The notes under the pieces are model-generated. The model searched no databases and was not told where the DNA came from. It saw nothing but the letters and a program-made list of their open reading frames with translations. DNA of 45,014 nucleotides, taken from NCBI GenBank assembly GCA_007376295.1, contig VMGB01000003.1, positions 137,106-182,119 of the forward strand, given 5' to 3'. This document shows, piece by piece, positions 5,072 to 41,188 of the stretch; the first letter of the stretch is position 1, and every line of letters starts with the position of its first letter. A program made the position numbers and the translations under genes. The stretch comes from Parcubacteria group bacterium Gr01-1014_13. Lineage in GTDB: Bacteria; Patescibacteriota; Patescibacteriia; Magasanikbacterales; GWA2-37-8.

Positions 5072-7573
5072 CTAATCTAAATACTCTTTTAGATACATTC
5101 CGGTATAAGAATTTGGATTATCTCCCACTTCTTCTGGCGTGCCTTTGGCCACTATCGTGCCGCCTTTAGCTCCACCCTCTGGACCCAAGTCGATGATATA
5201 ATCGGCGCATTTTAATATATGTAAGTTATGCTCAATAATTATCACGGAATTTCCTTTGTCTACCAGTTTGTTCAAAACTCTGAGCAGTAATTCTATATCA
5301 TGATAATGCAAACCGACTGTTGGTTCATCCAAAAGATACATAGTTTTTTTACCTAATGGCCCGGTAAGTTCGCGAGCTAATTTTATACGTTGCGCTTCTC
5401 CACCCGAAAGTGTCGTCGCGCTTTGTCCCAAACGCAGATAACCTAAACCAACTTCTTGCAGAACTTTTAATTTGTCGGTAATCAAATAATTGTTTTCAAA
5501 AAATTTAGTCGCTTCGTTTACCGTCATTTCGAGCACATCACTAATATTTTTACCTTTGTGTTTCACTTGCAAAGTTTCGCGGCTAAATCTTTTGCCATGA
5601 CAAACTTCACAAGGCACTTCCACCTCAGGCATGAAATGCATTTCAATTGTGTTAAAACCTGCGCCTTGGCAAGCTTCACAGCGACCGCCCGCTCGATTGA
5701 AAGAAAAACGTGAGTGCGTATAACCACGCATGCGTGAATCTTCTAGACTGGCATAGAAATCACGGATAGGCGTAAAAATACCAGTATAGGTGGCCGGATT
5801 GGAACGCGGAGTGCGGCCAATCGGCGACTGATCCATAATTATAACTTTATCTACATATTCAGAGCCGGTAATTTTCGCTACGTCTTCTAAATGCTTAAAC
5901 CGGCTTTTTATTCTGACCATGTTTTCATATAACACATCATACAAAAGTGAAGATTTACCACCGCCAGACACACCCGAAATACAAACCAATTTACGTAACG
6001 GGATTTTTACATTAATATTTTTTAAATTGTGGGCACGGGCGCCGACTATAGAAATTTCTTCCGTTTCTTTCCAGCGGCGTTTTCTCGGCACTTCAATTTT
6101 TACTTCTTCATTTAAATACTTCAAAGTTAACGACCGGCTATCTTTTGTTTTCTTAATATCTTTAGTTGGGCCAGCAAACACCACTTCCCCACCCAACTCT
6201 CCGGCCATGGGGCCGAGGTCGATTAAATAGTCCGAGTCTTTTATCGTGCGCTCGTCGTGTTCTACGATTATCACTGTATTGTTTTCGTCGCGTAAATTTT
6301 TTAAAGTTTTTACCAAGCGTTCGGTATCGCGTTCATGCAAACCAATCGTCGGTTCGTCTAACACATACAAAGTATTAGAAAGATGCGAACCAATCTGCGA
6401 AGCCAAACGAATACGCTGCGCCTCGCCGCCTGATAGTGTTTCTGCTTCGCGGATTAGAGTAATGTAATCCAAACCAACCTCTAACAAAAATTTTAGACGG
6501 TCATTAATTTCTTTCACCACATTGTGCGCGATCAATCTGTGGCGTTCATTTAGATTTTTTTCATAATCCTTAAAAAAATCATGGGCATCAGCAATTGTTA
6601 AAGCCGAAACTTCATAAATATTTTTGTCTTTAATACGAACCGATAATGCTTCCGGTTTTAATCTTTTGCCTTGGCAATCCGGACAAATTGTTTTTAAAAA
6701 CAAATCGGTTTTGCCTAAACCGCCACAAGTCGGACATGCGCCAGCTGGACTGTTGAACGAAAACAGACGCGGCTCAATTTCAGGAAAAGAAAATCCGTCT
6801 GTAGGGCAAGACCAATGGCTGGAAAATAATCTTTCCACTTGGTCTTTTTTATTTTCTCTAAACAAAACCGCGGCCAAACCTTTGCTATGCTGCAAAGCGT
6901 TTTCTACCGCTTCAAATAATCTAGTTTCGTCGCTAATCATCACTCTGTCCATCACAATATCTATATCATGCACTTTGTAACGAGATAATTCTACGCGGTC
7001 GTGCAAAGAAACAAGCTTGCCATCTACCCGCGCCTGATCAAACCCGTCATTTAAGAAATCATAAAGCATTTGGTAATACTCGCCTTTGCGGCCGCGTACT
7101 ACCGGAGACAAAATTGTCACATATTTTTCTTTCAAATCTGCGCCCATACCCAAAATTATATCCACCATCTCCTCCGGAGTAAGTTTTTCGATTTTAGTGC
7201 CATCAGTCGGGCAATATACCTCGCCCAGACGCGCATACAAAACACGCAAGTAGTCATAAATTTCGGTGAGTGTGCCCACAATAGAGCGCGGGTTGTGGCT
7301 AAGCGCTTTTTGGCCAATAGCAATGGCCGGCGAAAGACCGGTAATTTCATCTACATCGGCGCGTTCCATCTGACCCAAAAATTGGCGCGCATATGGCGAC
7401 AAAGACTCTATATATCTGCGTTGGCCTTCAGCAAAAATAGTATCAAAAGCAAGAGACGATTTGCCGCTACCGGACACTCCAGTAAAAACCGTCATTTTAT
7501 TTTTCGGAATTTCCAAAGAAACATTTTTTAAATTATGCACTCTGGCTCCTTTGATAACAATTTTGTCTTCCAT
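5072..7573 (-). CDS. uvrA: excinuclease ABC subunit A lacking the insertion domain
   Basis: Two ABC modules (GVSGSGKSSLAFDT, LSGGEAQRIRLA; GVSGGGKSSLLYD, LSGGEAQRIKLA) and zinc modules (CPTCGGLG...CPDCQGKRL; CEACQGAG...CEVCHGKRF). 833 aa. Confidence 0.95.
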   Translation of the reverse strand: MEDKIVIKGARVHNLKNVSLEIPKNKMTVFTGVSGSGKSSLAFDTIFAEGQRRYIESLSPYARQFLGQMERADVDEITGLSPAIAIGQKALSHNPRSIVGTLTEIYDYLRVLYARLGEVYCPTDGTKIEKLTPEEMVDIILGMGADLKEKYVTILSPVVRGRKGEYYQMLYDFLNDGFDQARVDGKLVSLHDRVELSRYKVHDIDIVMDRVMISDETRLFEAVENALQHSKGLAAVLFRENKKDQVERLFSSHWSCPTDGFSFPEIEPRLFSFNSPAGACPTCGGLGKTDLFLKTICPDCQGKRLKPEALSVRIKDKNIYEVSALTIADAHDFFKDYEKNLNERHRLIAHNVVKEINDRLKFLLEVGLDYITLIREAETLSGGEAQRIRLASQIGSHLSNTLYVLDEPTIGLHERDTERLVKTLKNLRDENNTVIIVEHDERTIKDSDYLIDLGPMAGELGGEVVFAGPTKDIKKTKDSRSLTLKYLNEEVKIEVPRKRRWKETEEISIVGARAHNLKNINVKIPLRKLVCISGVSGGGKSSLLYDVLYENMVRIKSRFKHLEDVAKITGSEYVDKVIIMDQSPIGRTPRSNPATYTGIFTPIRDFYASLEDSRMRGYTHSRFSFNRAGGRCEACQGAGFNTIEMHFMPEVEVPCEVCHGKRFSRETLQVKHKGKNISDVLEMTVNEATKFFENNYLITDKLKVLQEVGLGYLRLGQSATTLSGGEAQRIKLARELTGPLGKKTMYLLDEPTVGLHYHDIELLLRVLNKLVDKGNSVIIIEHNLHILKCADYIIDLGPEGGAKGGTIVAKGTPEEVGDNPNSYTGMYLKEYLD

Positions 7574-13358: not shown

Positions 13359-15824
13359 ATGCAAGAAAAAATAGAATTACCTGGTCAAGAAATTGGTTTA
13401 ATCACGCCAGCATCGCTCGTAGATGAAATGCAAAAATCATATCTGGAATATGCGATGAGCGTAATTGTTTCTCGTGCTTTGCCAGATGTCCGCGATGGCT
13501 TGAAGCCGGTACATCGCCGCGTGCTTTATGCGATGTGGAATATCGGTCTGCGCCACACTGCCAAATTTCGTAAATCTGCCCACGTAATCGGTGAGGTGAT
13601 GGCTAAATACCATCCGCACGGCGATGCTTCCATCTATGATGCCATGGTACGTATGGCCCAAGACTTTTCCATGCGCTACCCACTAGTACATGGCCAGGGA
13701 AACTTTGGTTCCATGGATGGCGACAATGCCGCGGCCATGCGTTATACCGAAGCCAAACTTACCGCCGTAGCTGAAGAGATGTTGTTTGATATTGAAAAAG
13801 ATACCGTTAATTTTATACCCAACTATGATGGTTCCCACGAAGAACCGACCGTTTTACCCTCTAAGCTACCAAACCTGCTCCTAAACGGTACTATGGGCAT
13901 TGCTGTGGGTATGGCGACCTCTATTCCTCCTCACAACCTGTCCGAGCTCTGTGATGGCCTAGCCAAGCTTATAGCTGAACCAGATGCCACCGTCGAAGAC
14001 CTGGCCAACATAATCAAAGGCCCAGACTTCCCTACCGGCGGTATTATCTACAACAAAAGAGATATCCTTACAGCCTACTCCACCGGTAAAGGCGGCATTG
14101 TGATGCGCGCTAAAGCGGAAATCCAAGAAGGTAAATCCGATCAATTCAAAATTGTTATTACCGAAGTTCCCTACAGCACCAATAAAGCCACCTTGGTGGA
14201 AAAAATTGCCGATCTGGTACAAGAGAAAAAAATCGAAGGCATCAGAGACTTACGCGACGAATCCAACAAAGATGGCGTCCGTGTGGTTGTTGATCTCAAA
14301 AAAGATGCTTATCCAAAAAAAGTTCTAAACAAACTATTCCAGATGACGGAACTGCAAACCACTTTCCATGTAAACATGTTGGCATTGGTAGACGGCATTC
14401 AACCGCGAGTGCTGACGATAAAAAATGTTTTGGAAGAATTTATCAAACACCGCCAAGTAATTATTAAACGCCGCACTGAATTTGATTTGAATAAAGCCAA
14501 GGACCGCGCCCATATTTTAGAGGGCTTGAGCATGGCGTTAGATAAAATTGATTTAATTATCAAAACTATTCGTGCTTCCAAAGACAAAGAGGAAGCCAAA
14601 GAAAATTTAATATCTAAATTTAAATTCACTGACCGACAAGCAGTCGCTATTTTAGAAATGAAACTGCAACAACTGGCTAACTTGGAACGACAGAAAATAG
14701 AGGATGAATTAAAAGAGAAAATGGCTTTAATAAAAGAATTGGAATCTATTTTGGCTTCTAAAACAAAGATAATGAAAATTATTGCTGATGAAACATTGGC
14801 TATAAAAGAAAAATACGGCCAAGACAGACGTACCCAAATTGTGGCTGGCGGTATAAAAGAATTTACTACTGAAGATTTAATTCCAAACGAAGCTACTATT
14901 ATCATGGTAACTTCTGATGGGTATATCAAACGCTTGCCTCCGGATACTTTCCACCAGCAATCACGTGGTGGGAAAGGTGTTATCGGTACTGCCACCAGAG
15001 AAGAAGAAAGTGTAGAAAATCTGGTAGCCACCAACACTCACGATAATATATTATTCTTCACCAATCGTGGCCGTGTCTTCCAGCTAATGGCCTATGATAT
15101 TCCCCAAGCCAGCCGCACTGCCAAAGGCCAGGCGATGATAAACTTTTTGCAACTTGCCCCGAATGAAAAAGTCACGGCGCTTTTGGGAATGAATGATCTA
15201 AGCAAAGTAAAATATCTAGTCATGACTACCACTCGAGGCAATATCAAAAAAACCGCTTTGGAAGATTTCGCCAACGTACGCCGCAGCGGGTTAATTGCGA
15301 TAAAATTAAAGCCTGATGATAATTTGGAATGGGTAAAACCGAGTGATGGGAGTGACGAAATTATGATTGCCACCAAACAAGGCCAAGCAATTCGCTTCAA
15401 AGAAAAAGATGTTCGTGAAATGGGACGCACAGCCAGTGGTGTGCGCGGTATGCGCCTAAAAAACGGAGACGAAGTGATTGGTATGGATATTGTGGATCCA
15501 AAAAATAAAAGCCTAGCATTCCTCACTGTTGGCGAAAACGGTGTCGGCAAACGCACCGAACTGGATGAATATAAAGTGCAAGGACGAGGCGGTAGCGGTA
15601 TCAAAACTGCCGAAATCACTGCCAAAACCGGCAACCTTACTTTTGCCAAAGTGGTAGATGCGGTAGAAGCAAAAGAAAAAGACCTGCTTATTATGTCCGC
15701 CAAAGGCCAGGTGATCCGCCTGCCGTTTGGATCAATTAACTCTTCCGGCCGAGCTACTCAAGGTGTACGCCTGATGAGATTTAAAGAAGAAGGTGATAAG
15801 GTTTCGAGTGTGACATTGATGTAA
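13359..15824 (+). CDS. gyrA: DNA gyrase subunit A
   Basis: [42 protein letters not shown] (catalytic Tyr), and C-terminal beta-pinwheel repeats. 821 aa. Confidence 0.97.
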
Positions 15825-15848
15825 AAATAATAATAGATAAGCAAAAAA

Positions 15849-15872
15849 ACAGCCAATAAAGGCTGTTTTTTT
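15849..15872 (+). terminator. gyrA intrinsic terminator
   Basis: ACAGCC-aataaa-GGCTGT followed by T7 and preceded by an A7 run, so it is potentially bidirectional. Confidence 0.7.
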
Positions 15873-15897
15873 AGCTAATAATAAGGTACAGGGGGGG

Positions 15898-15926
15898 TTG
15901 ACAAACGAACTATTTTATAGTATACT
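15898..15926 (+). promoter_or_regulatory. sigma70-type promoter TTGACA-N17-TATACT for the GC-rich orphan gene
   Basis: Near-consensus boxes in AT-rich DNA, immediately preceded by a G7 run (15891-15897). AGAGGAGAA SD at 15956-15964. Confidence 0.6.
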
Positions 15927-15970
15927 TGTTTATTGCTCTTTTTATCAACCCAAGCTAGAGGAGAACTGCG

Positions 15971-16750
15971 ATGATGACCAAGACCGAATTGCTTTCCCGT
16001 CTCAAGAGGATCCGCCAGAGTGAGTGTCGGACGCGTGGACTGTTCACGCTGATCCAGATGTTCATCCACTACTTCAAGGACGCCAGCGTTCCGGAGTACG
16101 ATGGATTGGGCATCTTCCACTTTCTCCCCAAGCACCTCGCGCGCGCCGTCGAGATCCTGCGGACCAGCAAGGACCTCAAGATCGAGGCATTCCGCCAGGC
16201 GTACTACAACGAGATGCAGCGGGAAGAGGAGATTCCGAGTCTGACCGAAATCGAGTTCGGTGGGGTAGGACGCACTCTCACCTGCCACACACTCAGCACT
16301 GACTTGCCGAAACTTCTGCTCGGCGAGGAGTGCGCCTGGCTCGAGAAGGACATGTACGCCTACTTCACTTCCCAGGACACGATCGTGAAGCAGATGATCG
16401 ACCGCTTCGATCTCGAGGTCTACCAGGGGGGGCTCTGCACCATCATCGACGAGTGCAAGACTCGTGGCATGACTGGCACGTTCGGCAAGACATCGCTTCG
16501 TAGCTACGTCATGGCCGGCCGCGTCATGCTCACGCTCGCGCGTCCGCGCAAGGACTCTGAGGTGGAGCACAGCGTCTCGTTCGTCGGCGAAGACGGCAAG
16601 ACGTCGGAGCCTCGCTTCGGCATCCAGTCGTTCCACGCCAACCTCACAACGACCCTCAGCATGTTCGAGGAGGTGATCAACAACTGGCCCAAGAATAACA
16701 AGGAGCAGAAGAAGATCTACAAAGCCGACAAGGAAGTCGGCATGGGATGA
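15971..16750 (+). CDS. hypothetical protein (259 aa) in a compositionally foreign, GC3-rich gene
   Basis: Codons are overwhelmingly G/C-ending (CTC, AAG, ATC, TTC, GAG, CGC), unlike the flanking genes. Promoter, SD and terminator all fit the plus strand. No domain recognised. Contains a G7 run at 16426-16432. Confidence 0.6.
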   Translation: MMTKTELLSRLKRIRQSECRTRGLFTLIQMFIHYFKDASVPEYDGLGIFHFLPKHLARAVEILRTSKDLKIEAFRQAYYNEMQREEEIPSLTEIEFGGVGRTLTCHTLSTDLPKLLLGEECAWLEKDMYAYFTSQDTIVKQMIDRFDLEVYQGGLCTIIDECKTRGMTGTFGKTSLRSYVMAGRVMLTLARPRKDSEVEHSVSFVGEDGKTSEPRFGIQSFHANLTTTLSMFEEVINNWPKNNKEQKKIYKADKEVGMG

Positions 16751-16801
16751 TCTGACCGCAACTACCGCAAAATGCAGTGGTGGTCGATCTTTCATAAGGC
16801 C

Positions 16802-16830
16802 GCCCTATCATTTTTGATAGGGCTTTTTTT
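16802..16830 (+). terminator. intrinsic terminator of the GC-rich orphan gene
   Basis: GCCCTATC-attttt-GATAGGGC followed by T7. Confidence 0.7.
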
Positions 16831-16875
16831 ATTATTGAAGTTGCCTAAACCCAGTAAATCAGCTAAAATTTAAAT

Positions 16876-18264
16876 ATGCCATATCAAACAATCATTCCAG
16901 AAAATCCAAATATAAAAGACTTGCTAGCGCAGATCCGCCAGTACTACCGCAAAAAAGACATTGACATGGTGCAATTGGCCTATGATTTTGCTGCCAAAGC
17001 CCATGCCGGACATGTTCCAGAGGATACATCTGTCAGTCTGGAGGAAATAGAAAAAAATTTCGGACCGGATATTGCTTCCATAATAAAAGGCATCACCAAA
17101 TTAGGCAAACTAAAATACCGCGGCGTAGAACGCTACATAGAAAATCTGCGAAAAATGTTTGTGGCTATGGCCGAAGATATTCGCGTAATGATTATTAAAT
17201 TTGCCGACCGCGTACACAACCTGTCTACCATCGATGCTCTGCCAATAAAAAAACGGTATCGAATCGCCTTGGAAAGTTTGGAAATTTACGCACCTATTGC
17301 CAACCGCCTAGGTATCGGTGAATTTAAAAGTCTTTTAGAAGATCTCTCCTTCCCATATATCTACCCTAAAGAATACGAAAAAACCAAAGCTCTGCGTAAC
17401 ACTTTAATTTCTCAGCGCGAAGCCTACTTACAAAATGTCATGGAGGTTATTGAAAAAGAATTAAAAAGTTCAGGAATAAAAGTATTAAACGTTCATGGCC
17501 GAGAAAAAGCGTTATATAGTCTGTATCAAAAAATTCTCCGCAAAGGCGGCTGGGATAATACCGACAAAATTCATGATGTGGTAGCTATACGCATTATCGT
17601 AAACGACCTGTCTGATTGCTATGCGACCTTGGGCATAATCCACAAACTTTGGCATCCATTAAAAGGAGGTATTAAAGATTACATTTCCCAGCCAAAGCCC
17701 AATGGTTACAAATCTTTGCACACCACAGTATTTTGTATTGAAGGTCAGATTGTTGAATTCCAAATACGTGATAAAACAATGCACAATGAAGCCGAATATG
17801 GTATTGCCGCTCACTGGCATTATGACGAACGTGGCTCTCGCCTGCCCGCCAAAGATATTTTTTGGGCCAAAGAACTAGCCAATATTCAAAAAAATGTTTT
17901 AGAAAAACTGTCTGATTTGAATGAACTTAAAATCGACTTCTTTAAAAATCGTATCTTTGTCTTTACCCCGCAAGGTGATGTTATCGACCTGCCGGAAGAC
18001 GCTACTCCAATTGATTTTGCCTACAATATCCATACCGACATCGGCAATCAGTGTAATGGAGCAAAAGTTAATGATCAATTGGTAAGTTTAGATACACCGC
18101 TGAAAAGCGGCGACGTGATAGAAGTTTTTACAGATAAAAATCGCAAAGGGCCAAGCCCGGATTGGTTGAAGCACGTAAAAACTCACATGGCCAAATCCCA
18201 TATCAAAGAAAAATTAAAAAATGAAAAAAGAAGTTGGTTAAAAAATATTCTGCCAAAAAAATAA
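16876..18264 (+). CDS. rel: RelA/SpoT homolog: HD domain with an internal deletion, synthetase domain and TGS domain; no C-terminal ACT/RRM region
   Basis: FVAMAEDIRVMIIKFADRVHNL, the synthetase core (HGREKALYSLYQK, AIRIIV, DYISQPKPNGYKSLHTTV, QIRDKTMHNEAEYGIAAHW) and TGS (IFVFTPQGDVIDLPEDATPIDFAYNIHTDIG). TTGCCT-N17-TAAAAT ends 6 nt before the ATG, suggesting a leaderless mRNA. Confidence 0.88.
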   Translation: MPYQTIIPENPNIKDLLAQIRQYYRKKDIDMVQLAYDFAAKAHAGHVPEDTSVSLEEIEKNFGPDIASIIKGITKLGKLKYRGVERYIENLRKMFVAMAEDIRVMIIKFADRVHNLSTIDALPIKKRYRIALESLEIYAPIANRLGIGEFKSLLEDLSFPYIYPKEYEKTKALRNTLISQREAYLQNVMEVIEKELKSSGIKVLNVHGREKALYSLYQKILRKGGWDNTDKIHDVVAIRIIVNDLSDCYATLGIIHKLWHPLKGGIKDYISQPKPNGYKSLHTTVFCIEGQIVEFQIRDKTMHNEAEYGIAAHWHYDERGSRLPAKDIFWAKELANIQKNVLEKLSDLNELKIDFFKNRIFVFTPQGDVIDLPEDATPIDFAYNIHTDIGNQCNGAKVNDQLVSLDTPLKSGDVIEVFTDKNRKGPSPDWLKHVKTHMAKSHIKEKLKNEKRSWLKNILPKK

Positions 18265-27071: not shown

Positions 27072-27512
27072 TTATTTAATTTCTCCGCCTGCAGCCTTAA
27101 TTTTTTCGGCAGCACCAGCAGTGCTAGCCACTCCTTCGATAACTAATTTTTTGGTAATATCTCCGGTAGACAAAATTTTAGCAGCTTTTGCTCTAGTGCT
27201 TACTAAATGTTTTTCTTGCAAAGAAGCTAAAGTTACAACTTCACCGTCTTGGAAAGTATTTTCTAAATCTGACAAATACACCTCTGACGGCTTGGTGTTT
27301 AGACTGTTAAAACCGCGCAACTTTGGAGTTGACTGCAATAGTCTTTTAAAACCTCGGCGGCGAGTACCTTGACTTCCGCCTGATCTGGCAGTTTGACCCT
27401 TACCACCTCTGGTGGCAGTAGTACCGTGACCAGACGCATTGCCTCTGCCCAAGATTTTTTTAGCCTTCTTGGATCCTTTAGCCGGATGAATTGTATGTAC
27501 GTGTAAAGACAT
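27072..27512 (-). CDS. rplO: 50S ribosomal protein L15 (uL15)
   Basis: GRGNASGHGTTATRGGKGQTARSG motif and operon position. Confidence 0.93.
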   Translation of the reverse strand: MSLHVHTIHPAKGSKKAKKILGRGNASGHGTTATRGGKGQTARSGGSQGTRRRGFKRLLQSTPKLRGFNSLNTKPSEVYLSDLENTFQDGEVVTLASLQEKHLVSTRAKAAKILSTGDITKKLVIEGVASTAGAAEKIKAAGGEIK

Positions 27513-27516
27513 AATT

Positions 27517-28053
27517 TTATTTTACTTCTGTAACTACAGGTTGTACCTGAGGTTTCTTAACATCAAATTCTCTTTTTCCGCCATTTTTAAACATCTGCAA
27601 AGCATTAAATGTAGCCTTAACGATAGTTACTTTATTTTTTGTTTTACCTAAAATTTTAGAAACCACATTTGGTATTCCGGCTAATTCCAACATGGCGCGG
27701 GTCGCACCGCCGGCGATAATACCAGAACCTTGTGGGGCTGGTTTTAAAAATACAGTAGCTGCTTTGAATTTATAAACTATAGCGTGAGGAATGGTGCCAT
27801 TGATAATCGGTACAGTAATCATGTGTTTCTTGGCCTGATTTACGGCCTTTTCTACACCTAATTGTACATCTTTACCTTTAGCAAGTCCAAAACCAACTCG
27901 GCCCTTGCGATCACCCAAAATAATACAAGCGCGGAAACTCATATGTTTTCCACCCTTAGTTACTCTGGTAACGCGAGCCAAATCCAAAACATACTGATCG
28001 AATTCAGGCTTTTCTCGCGGTTTGTCGCCTCGTCTACCCATTGGTTTACTCAT
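27517..28053 (-). CDS. rpsE: 30S ribosomal protein S5 (uS5)
   Basis: RVTRVTKGGKHMSFRACIILGDRKGRVGFGLAKGKDV. Followed 4 nt later by rplO, so no L30 gene lies between them. Confidence 0.94.
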   Translation of the reverse strand: MSKPMGRRGDKPREKPEFDQYVLDLARVTRVTKGGKHMSFRACIILGDRKGRVGFGLAKGKDVQLGVEKAVNQAKKHMITVPIINGTIPHAIVYKFKAATVFLKPAPQGSGIIAGGATRAMLELAGIPNVVSKILGKTKNKVTIVKATFNALQMFKNGGKREFDVKKPQVQPVVTEVK

Positions 28054-39480: not shown

Positions 39481-39925
39481 TTAGCCTTGTATCTTCTTCT
39501 CTATCCTACTCAAAGGCTTAAATTGGAGAAGAGTACAACCTTCCTCAGAAGATTTACGAAAAAGCAATTGATCGCCGGGGCCATACATATGAACAATTTC
39601 TGCGTAAAATCTTAAGGCATCAGACAGGACTTCAGCTGGAGAAGCGGCCTTCGTTTTTAGCTGGATAAGCTGAATATGCTCTGCAACCTTCCTGCTTATA
39701 CCAACATTTGCCACATAGGCATCTTCATCATGTTCTATTTCTGTTGGAGAAGGCCCGGGAACAACTCGCTCCTTATTAAAATCATAAGCTTCCTTCTTGG
39801 CACGCTTCTTTTTTCGTCTTTGAACTATCGCATCTACCCCTATATATAAGTAGAGCAAATGTTATGATTCCAGCGAAAATACTTATCCCCCAGAATCCCC
39901 ACAATATTGCTATGCTGCTCATCAT
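39481..39925 (-). pseudogene. single-pass membrane protein gene split by a frameshift at a (TA)4 run
   Basis: GGAGGAA SD plus ATGATG at 39920-39925 opens a 47-codon ORF (MMSSIAILWGFWGISIFAGIITFALLIY...) that stops at 39782. The 125-aa track ORF continues in the +1 frame from the TATATATA run (39841-39848) with VDAIVQRRKKKRAKK. Confidence 0.55.
39841..39848. repeat. (TA)4 dinucleotide run at the frameshift point
   Basis: Adding one TA unit would fuse the two frames into ...FALLIYIGVDAIVQRRKKK.... Confidence 0.6.
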
Positions 39926-39982
39926 TTCCTCCAAAGTTGAAAAGACGATACCATAAGGTATCGTACGTCAATTTGTTTTAAA

Positions 39983-40058: not shown

Positions 40059-40087
40059 AGTATAGCACAATTGATTTTTATTGTCAA
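40059..40087 (-). promoter_or_regulatory. promoter TTGACA-N17-TATACT (minus strand) with no ORF downstream
   Basis: Boxes at 40082-40087 and 40059-40064 with an exact 17-nt spacer. Confidence 0.5.
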
Positions 40088-40600: not shown

Positions 40601-41188
40601 TTAGAGACAACGATTACGGCGGCAAAAGGCTTGGCGATCGTAAGTTGTCACTCGCTTGCTGCCCGGCTGTGAGATCATCACACTATCGGTGCCGTCGTCA
40701 GCATGATGGAGCCATCCGGCATGGCCGAGTTCGTGCGCCACGATGTGTTGTATCATCCAAGTACATGGCCAGCCATCTGGCGTTCCCGTAACATGACAAT
40801 CATTATTCCCGAAAATCACGATATCATCACCTTCATCGAACAATCCGCCGGCATTCTGATCAATATGATGATCTTGCCATAGTTCGCGACCGTACGGAGT
40901 CGGGTAATGATCGTAAACGCGATATATACAGTGCAAACCATCGTCGATATCGGATTCCTCATAGGTATCCTCTTCGAGCAACACGCCACCGAAGTGAAAA
41001 GGCTTGTTACCGGACGACAACGTGATATTAGCGTTCCAGTCGTCGATCGACGCAATAATCTGGTTGATCTGTTTGATCTGCCAGTCACCGCATGCATAGA
41101 CCTCAGCGGTATTGCCATCACGAATCTCTTCATAGCCACTTTCACAGGCCGCAAAGAGTACAAAATAGCAGAGAAACAGCTTCTTCAT
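40601..41188 (-). CDS. metzincin-like zinc metalloprotease, probable lipoprotein (195 aa)
   Basis: Signal peptide with a lipobox-like LFAAC. HELGHAGWLHH (HExxHxxxxxH-type zinc site) followed by an SVM Met-turn candidate. GGGAGGT SD. GC is clearly above the core genes. Confidence 0.7.
   Translation of the reverse strand: MKKLFLCYFVLFAACESGYEEIRDGNTAEVYACGDWQIKQINQIIASIDDWNANITLSSGNKPFHFGGVLLEEDTYEESDIDDGLHCIYRVYDHYPTPYGRELWQDHHIDQNAGGLFDEGDDIVIFGNNDCHVTGTPDGWPCTWMIQHIVAHELGHAGWLHHADDGTDSVMISQPGSKRVTTYDRQAFCRRNRCL

Follow-up and report, generated by a model that had tools for sequence, protein, structure and literature searches.

A 259-aa gene lying between gyrA and rel of a low-GC bacterium is GC-rich at synonymous positions only, is flanked by its own promoter and terminator, and has diverged alleles with the same composition in other AT-rich surroundings. 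We consider it probable that this unit is a moron-like accessory expression cassette that circulates among groundwater CPR-type bacteria and whose synonymous sites are held GC-rich by selection. Atypical GC content is routinely taken as the footprint of recent transfer, and a first-pass annotation of this DNA had accordingly proposed that the gene was recently imported from a high-GC donor, possibly the host of an episymbiont, and had ameliorated little since. Here that reading fails its own quantitative predictions: the allele lineage holds 0.77–0.94 GC at silent sites in genomes of approximately 40 % GC, and its amino acid make-up, leaders and replacements are those of a low-GC gene.

Anatomy and setting of the cassette

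The window, by which we mean the whole stretch of 45,014 nucleotides analysed, has a GC content of 0.41. The cassette's neighbours in it are gyrA, rel, parB-like and parA-like ORFs, and ribosomal genes, among which S5 adjoins L15 without uL30. This gene order fits a CPR-type bacterium and lends indirect support to that putative assignment. The features in and around the cassette are as follows.

13359–15824, plus strand: gyrA, the upstream neighbour, outside the cassette; Pfam DNA_topoisoIV (3e-167) and six DNA_gyraseA_C repeats; GC3 0.42
15842–15873, no strand assigned: gyrA terminator hairpin, a 12-bp perfect inverted repeat (15843–15854 / 15861–15872) with A and T runs on its sides
15875–16795, minus strand: 306-aa antisense ORF, which is no gene but a shadow arising from the low A3 of the sense frame
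15891–15926, plus strand: cassette promoter, with a G7 run (15891–15897), −35 TTGACA (15898–15903), a 17-nt spacer and −10 TATACT (15921–15926)
15927–15970, plus strand: short, unstructured, AT-rich leader with the Shine-Dalgarno sequence AGAGGAGAA at 15957–15965
15971–16750, plus strand: coding sequence for a 259-aa protein of an alpha+beta family without annotation; GC1 0.53 (0.529), GC2 0.375, GC3 0.84 (0.842)
16749–16801, plus strand: conserved GC-rich 3'-UTR stem element, CCGCAACTACCGC...GGTCGATCTTTCATAAGGCCGCC, unique in the window
16802–16830, plus strand: intrinsic cassette terminator, with a 9-bp stem (16802–16823), a 4-nt loop and T7
16841–16869, plus strand: a weaker promoter-like site belonging to rel, matching 9 of 12 consensus positions
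16876–18264, plus strand: rel, RelA/SpoT-type, 462 aa, the downstream neighbour; Pfam HD_4, RelA_SpoT and TGS

The Pfam domains agree with the earlier naming of gyrA and rel as the flanking genes, and the promoter, G7 run, Shine-Dalgarno sequence and terminator were all found where the first-pass annotation had placed them, as signals of host type. On the left, the native intergenic DNA starts at the gyrA terminator hairpin. The cassette promoter, TTGACA-17-TATACT, agrees with the consensus at 11 of 12 positions and is one of three full-consensus sites in the 45 kb, where 0.06 would be expected by chance; GGGTTGACA, in the promoter region, is unique in the window. A G-run followed by TTGACA-N17-TATAnT is kept upstream of the homologous coding sequences in the alleles L005, L008, L009, L010, L013 and L014, and promoter and terminator are conserved in homologous units. 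The cassette is probably highly expressed. From promoter to ATG the window allele has a GC content of 0.34; its leader has a fold z of −0.36 and, by alignment, resembles the leader type of L009 and L013 minus about 100 nt. The 3'-UTR stem element is 83–91 % identical to that of other GC3-rich alleles, with an RNA fold z of −5.4; the 3' stem-loop carries the sequence GAUCUUUCAYAA. A scan of the UTRs against Rfam at the gathering threshold returned tRNAs only and no known RNA family.

Homologous units are found elsewhere after mraY, after tRNA-Asn and next to a DUF4238 gene. That such units occupy different sites in other genomes makes it plausible that the one between gyrA and rel is an inserted accessory unit, in line with the acquisition proposed earlier. 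An exact-match look-up of the Rel protein, made in search of an empty site or other strains, gave no record, and run X2 contributed a single 151-nt unitig, ending at 15867. Around the cassette we found neither a mobility gene nor a target-site duplication, and no terminal repeat that was convincing; the only flanking inverted repeat, of 11 nt with one mismatch (15869–15879 / 16858–16868), is at chance level.

The encoded protein is soluble, has a mass of about 30 kDa and belongs to a large alpha+beta family that lacks annotation and for which no solved structural analogue could be detected. It had previously been called an orphan, a description that does not hold since the family comprises at least 303 clusters at 50 % identity. 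Together with this family, the AF2 model (pLDDT 96.7, pTM 0.90) argues for a real, folded protein. Scans of the protein and 77 family members against Pfam, NCBIfam, PHROGs and PADLOC produced only single-member chance matches, the best hit of a PDB profile search had an E value of 0.47, and Foldseek against PDB and BFVD gave no fold match (best E 0.03–0.23, TM ≤0.28). A full-text literature search likewise returned nothing on this protein family or on a GC3-only pattern. The residues conserved are Gly, Phe, Trp, Pro, Arg, Tyr and Thr. Because invariant Asp, Glu, His and Cys are absent, we infer that the product may be an accessory protein with a binding or structural role, and not a hydrolase of the classical kind.

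Synonymous composition and diverged alleles

The coding sequence has a total GC of 0.58, and its excess is confined to third positions. Against 22 credible host genes, whose GC3 is 0.356±0.047, it lies at z = +10.3 for GC3, with z = +0.5 for GC1 and −0.1 for GC2; every other ORF in the window that reaches 120 aa has a GC3 of 0.21–0.55, and the ribosomal-protein genes of this genome have 0.21–0.36. GARP is 0.205 versus 0.242 in the host genes and FYMINK 0.286 versus 0.292. The gene is GC-rich at synonymous positions only, with GC1, GC2 and amino acid composition host-like. In 300-nt windows GC rises from approximately 0.40 to 0.58–0.61 across about 15970–16750 and then drops back, the onset being at about the start codon and the end shortly past the stop, so that the gene was correctly singled out in the first pass as a sharply bounded GC3-rich outlier.

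Third positions follow the order C > G >> T > A, broadly as in high-GC bacteria, in a codon dialect that is more C-biased than that of L019 (C/(C+G) 0.68 versus 0.56), with CTC commoner than CTG and CGT kept at 23 %. The nearby tRNA was considered for decoding the rare CTC codons and discarded: it is tRNA-Leu(CAA), which makes it irrelevant. On inspection, an alternative genetic code and read-through at the TGA stop were both rejected, because downstream frames vary among alleles and table 11 leaves the host genes intact. When alleles were compared with synonymous-codon permutations, the signal for mRNA structure in excess of that due to codon usage was inconsistent from one allele to another, with z values from +0.5 to −4.3.

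The same pattern recurs in the other alleles. In W (the window's own), L005, L007, L008, L009, L010/L014, L012 and L013, GC3 is 0.77–0.94, GC1 0.53–0.58 and GC2 0.355–0.39, the flanks have 0.37–0.47 GC, and the neighbouring genes differ. Amino acid identity among these alleles is 0.52–0.89 and identity at 4-fold sites 0.48–0.90, where about 0.40 is expected at saturation for this composition; dN within the clade is 0.05–0.38, and dN/dS by NG86 is 0.23–0.5, a ratio that is inflated if synonymous sites are constrained. By codon position, identity falls from 0.81 at the second to 0.74 at the first and 0.66 at the third, which fits the sense frame and bears out the earlier choice of the plus strand as the coding strand. 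At variable amino acid columns, the clade has a GC12 of 0.455, close to the 0.442 of AT-type relatives, and the high-GC relative one of 0.618, DNA being compared from four family members outside the GC3-rich clade; the clade's amino acid replacements show no GC drift. A separate subclade offers a further contrast: L017 and L018, both in AT contexts, share 71 % amino acid identity and have a GC3 of 0.71 versus 0.43.

Homologous leaders are AT-rich (0.34–0.45 GC) and 91–96 % identical among alleles. Conservation this strong could by itself have kept a leader AT-rich even in a GC-rich genome.

Between L005 and L007, identity is 0.96 in the leader, 0.75 in the coding sequence and 0.90–1.00 in the 3' region, whereas L009 has an L005-like coding sequence (0.91) yet a different leader. 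Because the modules are mosaic in this way, and the flanks often better conserved than the coding sequence, recombination of the cassette would be frequent, and it is recombination that probably makes it mobile. Its patchy distribution and differing insertion sites further suggest horizontal spread. Pieces of the cassette come from groundwater, sediment and aquatic metagenomes of seven studies, the L009 allele reaching a depth of 139x. A scan of 185,579 species genomes gave a single match, a MAG, on an AT-type contig, and a metagenome scan for further loci re-found only contigs already known. A phage or plasmid origin was rejected: tblastn searches of 50,697 phage and 72,556 plasmid records gave no match, nor did a protein-pattern scan of IMG/VR, scans for the conserved 3' element, or PHROGs.

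Explanations of the synonymous GC-richness

The reading that we favour begins with positions 15891–16830 as a compact, self-sufficient cassette, in which a strong sigma-70-type promoter and a Shine-Dalgarno sequence precede one coding sequence, followed by a structured element at the 3' side and by an intrinsic terminator, and which would have lodged between gyrA and rel of a low-GC, CPR-type groundwater bacterium. The window cassette would be one allele of a lineage circulating among similar low-GC, putatively CPR-type genomes and landing at unrelated intergenic sites, while recombination would reshuffle its promoter-leader, coding and 3' modules. As the synonymous-only GC-richness has persisted through divergence in AT-rich surroundings, the force maintaining it would be one that sees codons or mRNA. 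By exclusion of the alternatives discussed below we infer this force to be selection on synonymous sites rather than the relic of a high-GC donor. The selective agent might be control of translation through codons, shielding of the mRNA against AU-directed decay, or some other factor.

A non-selective local process, either GC-biased gene conversion accompanying recombination or a transcription-linked mutation bias arising from the strong promoter, is unlikely as the source of the pattern. The mosaic modules and the well-conserved flanks do point to frequent recombination, and the promoter is a full-consensus match. Such a process would, however, affect all sites, and neither the variable amino acid columns nor the leaders, which are transcribed or recombined together with the gene, are enriched in GC; its effect would also have to begin at about the start codon and stop shortly after the stop codon. 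GC-biased gene conversion has reportedly been proposed for bacteria. Its reported effects in bacteria are in the order of a few percent, not a shift from 0.36 to 0.9.

High GC3 combined with low GC1 and GC2 is what a round trip would produce, in which a low-GC CPR gene entered a high-GC genome, equilibrated there at synonymous sites only, and returned to CPR bacteria several times very recently. Gene exchange between an episymbiont and its host is plausible in principle, and the constrained leaders might have resisted GC drift. We nevertheless regard this history as distinctly unlikely. It needs many independent and very recent back-transfers, as the nine alleles stand at different sites; the clade has diversified without GC drift at its variable columns; GC3 has shifted between L017 and L018 within another subclade of AT context; and neither the two protein databases, with 5.8 and 15 billion entries, nor the 185,579 species genomes yielded an allele from a high-GC context.

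The one-way version, recent transfer from a high-GC bacterium that has yet to ameliorate, is highly improbable. It would account for a GC3 of 0.84 with sharp edges in a genome of 0.41 GC, for the broadly high-GC order of third-position bases, and for the presence of high-GC members in the family, which include P0074, from a contig of 74.5 % GC, and several representatives with a GARP of about 0.37. By the Muto-Osawa and Lawrence-Ochman formulae, however, a donor with a GC3 of 0.9 should have a GC1 of about 0.72 and a GC2 of about 0.46, and P0074 itself has 0.74, 0.48 and 0.93 at the three positions; the window gene, at 0.529 and 0.375, is far from both, and its GARP and FYMINK are host-like. 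Amelioration erodes GC3 first, so that a partly ameliorated import would look the opposite of what is seen here. The family members with high GC are remote relatives, scoring E of about 1e-17 to 1e-31 in the profile comparison, and the protein and genome searches just described returned no close homologue in any high-GC context. AT-rich flanks surround each of the nine distinct close alleles, the eight besides that of the window repeating the GC3-only pattern at 4-fold identities down to 0.48, and their common leaders are AT-rich. The strongly C-biased codon dialect, with its preference for CTC over CTG and its retained CGT, also argues against such a donor. The import proposed in the first-pass annotation is therefore not upheld.

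We also give little credence to the codon dialect being an adaptation to a translation system other than the carrier's, selected for expression after transfer into a high-GC host cell, or to expression being gated by the carrier through a special tRNA or RNase regime; if true, either would amount to a codon-encoded 'address label' on a mobile gene.

The chance that the minus-strand ORF is the real gene, or a second one whose frame is kept open by GC3-richness in the plus frame, is very slim. It exists at 15875–16795 as first described, its codon-aligned frame is free of stops in W, L005, L007, L009 and L010, and a possible ATG or GTG lies inside the conserved 3' element. The start is lost in L007, though, and L008, L012 and L013 have two stops each, which identifies the ORF as the shadow of high GC that it was first taken for. 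Conservation by codon position is the wrong way round for an antisense gene, the antisense product has no family match, it is the sense protein that folds with high confidence, AT-type homologues carry 3–9 stops in this frame, and an open frame is the expected by-product of an A3 of about 1–12 %.

Finally, although an abrupt change in composition is a classic warning sign of a GC-rich contaminant misjoined into an AT-rich contig, the probability of an assembly chimera is negligible, because independent Logan unitigs of run X1 (contigs, not raw read pairs), covering 15356–16549 and 16520–17012, cross both junctions with zero mismatches and at matching depth (17–20x on the island versus 20–23x on the flanks), and other samples show the same architecture in eight or more independent assemblies.

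If selection is indeed the cause, the cassette would represent an unusually extreme, gene-specific case of synonymous-site selection in bacteria, on a mobile and strongly promoted cassette of the CPR, a lineage that is still poorly understood. It would also provide a concrete system for the benefit of synonymous GC, be it mRNA survival, gating of translation, or evasion of AT-directed nucleases or silencers. The analysis also draws attention to a family of at least 303 clusters whose fold is predicted with confidence and which has neither an annotated nor a solved relative. In genome annotation, GC1 and GC2 deserve checking before a donor is called.

Comparison with known systems

Unlike insertion sequences and MITEs, the cassette has no transposase, no direct repeats at its ends and no terminal inverted repeats above chance. 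Integron gene cassettes are promoterless ORFs with an attC site, arrayed next to intI and attI. The unit described here resembles them in that a single ORF is followed by a conserved imperfect hairpin and is found in variable places, but it has a strong promoter of its own, occurs singly, and sits in unrelated intergenic regions. There is no integrase among the surrounding ORFs and no attI nearby, and the 3' hairpin, judged by eye, is without convincing R''/R' core sites.

Relations between GC content and codon position, and the amelioration of acquired genes that follows from them, have reportedly been described for bacterial genomes. With ameliorating acquired genes the cassette gene shares its accessory position and a deviating GC content with sharp boundaries; it differs in that its GC1 and GC2 are off the donor line, no donor-type context was found, and its pattern is stable over synonymous divergence where decay would be expected. 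Genome-wide selection or biased conversion favouring synonymous GC is also said to operate in bacteria and shares with the cassette a force that opposes AT-biased mutation at synonymous sites. In those reports the effect is weak, whereas in the cassette it is extreme (0.36 versus 0.84–0.94) and restricted to one gene lineage, and the genome's ribosomal-protein genes do not show it (GC3 0.21–0.36).

A further likeness is to the accessory genes that have reportedly been named phage 'morons'. A moron is one accessory ORF with its own sigma-70-type promoter and factor-independent terminator, placed between two unrelated genes and divergent in composition. The cassette, too, is a single ORF with its own promoter (11/12) and terminator (9-bp stem and T7), lies between unrelated genes, and has a composition unlike that of its neighbours. 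Morons reside in phage, while the cassette stands between the chromosomal housekeeping genes gyrA and rel, with no prophage and without phage, IMG/VR or PHROG matches. It differs further in that its contrast in composition is limited to synonymous sites and conserved across diverged alleles, and in that it additionally has a conserved leader and structured 3' modules.

Composition and setting of the gene

The 259-residue ORF between gyrA and the RelA/SpoT-type rel has a GC content of 0.58 and a GC3 of 0.842, in a window of 41.0 % GC where GC3 is 0.21-0.55 in every other ORF that reaches 120 aa. When compared with 22 credible host genes (GC1 0.508±0.039, GC2 0.377±0.035, GC3 0.356±0.047), the gene has z values of +0.5 for GC1, -0.1 for GC2 and +10.3 for GC3. 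In 300-nt windows the GC profile climbs from ~0.40 to 0.58-0.61 and falls back, with steps at the ORF ends. The sharply bounded GC3-rich gene described in the first-pass annotation is therefore confirmed, as are its flanking genes, and the expression signals are all present where that annotation had placed them:

15891-15897 (+), G7 run
15898-15926 (+), promoter TTGACA-N17-TATACT, matching 11 of 12 consensus positions
15957-15965 (+), SD, AGAGGAGAA
15971-16750 (+), 259-aa ORF
16802-16823 (+), terminator stem of 9 bp, followed by T7

The full-consensus promoter TTGACA-N16-18-TATAMT occurs only three times in 45 kb, where 0.06 sites are expected, and one of the other two copies precedes tRNA-Leu(CAA). 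The signals of the cassette (15891-16830) are thus both host-type and strong. The third such promoter, at 40059-40087 (-), faces small ORFs that lack annotation (50 and 125 aa; 39481-39934, -), has no recognisable housekeeping gene behind it, and may mark another strongly promoted accessory unit.

Other features of the window were also recorded. Among its real-looking genes, the second-highest GC3 (0.53) belongs to a 195-aa ORF at 40601-41188 (-), a possible lipoprotein metalloprotease judging by its HELGH (HExxH) motif and hydrophobic, Cys-containing N-terminus. Ribosomal protein S5 is followed by L15 after 4 nt, leaving no room for uL30 (27072-28053, -), an arrangement that is consistent with, but no proof of, CPR/Patescibacteria as reportedly described by Brown et al. 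2015. In the 5' region of rel, positions 16932-16954 read GATCCGCCAG-T-ACTACCGCAAAA, where GATCCGCCAG is an exact 10-mer of the cassette 5' CDS (16009-16018) and ACTACCGCAAAA an exact 12-mer of its 3' UTR (16761-16772). This stretch overlaps seven consecutive G/C-ending codons in a gene that is otherwise AT3, and the shared words could reflect chance, a small conversion tract or insertion-relevant microhomology.

Recurrence of the cassette in other genomes

Homologous GC3-rich alleles were identified at further loci, all with flanks of 0.37-0.47 GC and with GC1 of 0.54-0.58 and GC2 of 0.355-0.39.

Table. GC3 and genomic neighbours of homologous alleles
L005/L006: GC3 0.91; small ORFs and a PBP-family gene
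L007: GC3 0.88; DUF4238 gene
L008: GC3 0.85
L009: GC3 0.94
L010/L011/L014: GC3 0.92; downstream of the mraZ-rsmH-...-mraY cluster (MAG labelled Gammaproteobacteria, perhaps mislabelled)
L012: GC3 0.78; directly after tRNA-Asn
L013: GC3 0.77

Amino acid identity among the GC3-rich alleles is 0.52-0.89 and identity at 4-fold sites falls to 0.48, against ~0.40 at saturation, and every diverged allele of the clade is GC3-rich in an AT-rich context. Distant relatives in AT-type contigs have a GC3 of 0.44 (P0008), 0.43 (P0159) and 0.71 (P0162). Because P0162 (L017, 512-1357) and P0159 (L018, 1717-2526) share 71 % protein identity yet lie 0.28 apart in GC3, on contigs that are both ~0.42-0.44 GC, the shift is more than one historical event, being repeated or gradual within the family. 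A 104-aa ORF of no detected family directly upstream of the L014 cassette (7217-7531, +), with GC3 of 0.66 against ~0.43-0.47 in its neighbours and an ordinary GC2 of 0.37, may be a second, milder instance of GC3-only enrichment.

Upstream alignments revealed a G-run plus TTGACA-N17-TATAnT promoter and an AGGAGAA SD in all units, which also have in common a downstream GC-rich stem element, CCGCAACTACCGC...GGGGGCGGYCGATCTTTCACAAGGCCGCCCC, matched by the window at 83-91 %. Two leader types exist: that of L005, which spans ~135 nt and includes a long hairpin (fold z = -6), and that of L009/L013, of which the window leader is a shortened version. Long-form units have an extra AT-rich hairpin before the terminator, and compensating changes mark the terminator stem of L010 and of a variant from sequencing run X9. 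Conservation is often higher in the flanks than in the CDS, as in L005 and L007, where identity is 0.96 in the leader, 0.75 in the CDS (0.59 at 4-fold sites) and 0.90-1.00 in the 3' region. Modules are also mosaic; the L009 CDS is L005-like (0.91) and its leader is different. Cassette words are present in metagenomes of groundwater, sediment and aquatic origin across seven studies, and one allele is at 139x. The window unit comes with neither transposase nor integrase, and no target duplication or significant terminal repeat was found.

Long-form cassettes combine a leader that contains a near-perfect 30-bp AT-rich hairpin (L005 1080-1206) and a 3' UTR of three stems with a conserved 12-nt loop, GAUCUUUCACAA, at fold z of -6 to -9 (L005 2035-2175; also L007, L009 and L010). 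Neither matches any Rfam family. Integration hot spots typically adjoin tRNA genes. The L012 cassette begins directly after tRNA-Asn(GTT) (L012 95-167), and P0008 lies ~0.8 kb downstream of a four-tRNA-gene cluster, near an HTH_17/MerR-like gene (L001 7015-9177).

Origin of the synonymous GC enrichment

The first-pass annotation read the island as an orphan gene recently imported from a high-GC donor. A probably inserted, putatively expressed and compositionally foreign-looking unit is supported, but neither orphan status nor a recent high-GC donor is. By the Lawrence-Ochman / Muto-Osawa relations, a donor with GC3 of ~0.91 should have GC1 of ~0.72 and GC2 of ~0.46, whereas the observed 0.53 and 0.375 are indistinguishable from host genes. 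Amelioration erodes GC3 first, and a gene combining donor-like GC3 with recipient-like GC1 and GC2 shows the opposite of an import undergoing amelioration. The substantial divergence among the GC3-rich alleles, their AT-rich leaders and the composition of their amino acid replacements (values above and below) likewise speak against a recent import. When truly resident in a high-GC genome the family tracks genome GC: P0074, on contigs of 74.5 % GC, has GC1/GC2/GC3 of 0.74/0.48/0.93, similar to its neighbours. The codon dialect of the cassette is more C-biased than that genome's (C/(C+G) at 4-fold sites 0.68 vs 0.56), with CTC exceeding CTG, GTC far exceeding GTG and CGT kept at 23 %. The protein databases, representatives and genomes searched yielded no close allele in a high-GC context, and the phage, plasmid and viral collections none at all.

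A Crp/FNR-type regulator precedes the P0074 gene (L019/L020, 10001-10924; contigs of 81 kb and 40 kb) by 22 nt, and the gene is part of a co-directional, mostly unannotated array of >17 kb that ends near a DprA-like gene; only 2 of 10 neighbours match PHROGs. This array might represent either a mobile element or a conserved operon, and could give a hint at function.

As the enrichment is synonymous-only, bounded from start to stop and evolutionarily persistent, it points to selection on codons or mRNA. Candidate agents are translation gated or throttled by codon preferences that run counter to those of host ribosomal-protein genes (GC3 0.21-0.36), shielding of a highly expressed transcript against AU-directed decay or toxin RNases (third-position A is the most avoided base, A3 1-12 %), or escape from AT-directed silencing or restriction. 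Test results for extra global mRNA structure beyond codon usage were inconsistent.

Enrichment by gBGC or transcription-linked mutation would suit a recombining and strongly promoted unit, but we consider it improbable, since leaders and replaceable amino acid sites should then have shifted too and have not. Homologous leaders are 0.34-0.45 GC. Because GC12 at clade-variable amino acid columns is 0.455 in the clade, close to the 0.442 of AT-type relatives and against 0.618 in P0074, the replacements have built up without GC pressure. Slightly less probable again is that a CPR gene sojourned in a high-GC genome and returned; a sojourn of that kind would raise GC3 while leaving GC1 and GC2 low, but it requires numerous back-transfers, all very recent, and it conflicts with the same variable-column values and with the lack of close alleles in high-GC contexts and in the phage, plasmid and viral collections searched. 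The antisense 306-aa ORF is not a real gene but, as first proposed, a shadow, with two stops in its frame in three alleles and codon-position identity (0.74, 0.81, 0.66) that fits the sense frame. An assembly chimera, for which a check had been advised, is excluded, as unitigs of a 2019 groundwater run, X1 (15356-16549 and 16520-17012), cross both island edges with 0 mismatches at similar depth (17-20x on the island, 20-23x on the flanks), and the architecture recurs in independent assemblies.

In run X1, one contig (38.7x) omits 320 nt in the gyrA C-terminal repeat region (15058-15379) and the unitig graph branches at 17012, within rel, which suggests strain variants or a related genome co-existing in the sample.

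Predicted product and relation to known systems

Eight unannotated homologues with 36-69 % identity were retrieved from a big protein database, and searching 1.84 billion representatives with a profile expanded the family to 303 clusters (E ≤ 1e-3), with 69 reaching E ≤ 1e-30, at odds with the proposed orphan status. Members are usually ~255-285 aa long, and a 16-residue gap in the window protein relative to its closest relatives is a length polymorphism across the family and no truncation. AlphaFold, with a 77-sequence alignment (pLDDT 96.7, pTM 0.90), predicts a helical domain that extends from the N-terminus to ~residue 161, then a sheet of five antiparallel strands (166-221), with further helices at the C-terminus. 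Foldseek against PDB and BFVD returned no match (best E 0.03-0.23, TM ≤0.28), and none of Pfam, NCBIfam, PHROG, PADLOC or PDB-sequence matches consistently across the family. Conserved positions are of Gly, Phe, Trp, Pro and Ala types, together with Arg64, Arg75, Arg184, Arg191, Tyr78, Tyr151, Thr174 and Thr188; no Asp, Glu, His or Cys position is near-invariant. The window protein has a pI of 7 and no hydrophobic segment. The dN/dS of unsaturated allele pairs is 0.23-0.35, which suggests the relaxed or diversifying pressure expected for an accessory or conflict-related protein, although constraint on synonymous sites would inflate this value.

Collectively, the unit is most likely an autonomous, moron-like accessory cassette that would be exchanged among low-GC CPR-type groundwater bacteria, with signals predicted to be built for high transcription and a product predicted to be soluble, non-enzyme-like and a member of a new family. 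Weak selection or gBGC that favours synonymous GC across whole genomes is known in bacteria. No description of a gene-lineage-specific GC3 shift from 0.36 to 0.84-0.94 was found in the open-access literature, and the GC3-only pattern is both surprising for molecular evolutionists and directly testable. Integron cassettes, IS/MITE elements and overlapping-gene pairs were each considered and rejected. The likeness to a classical atypical-GC HGT island is superficial, as GC1 and GC2 are off the donor line and no donor-type context was found. With phage morons, the cassette shares its own promoter and terminator, an odd composition and a position between genes, although unlike them it does not lie in a phage.
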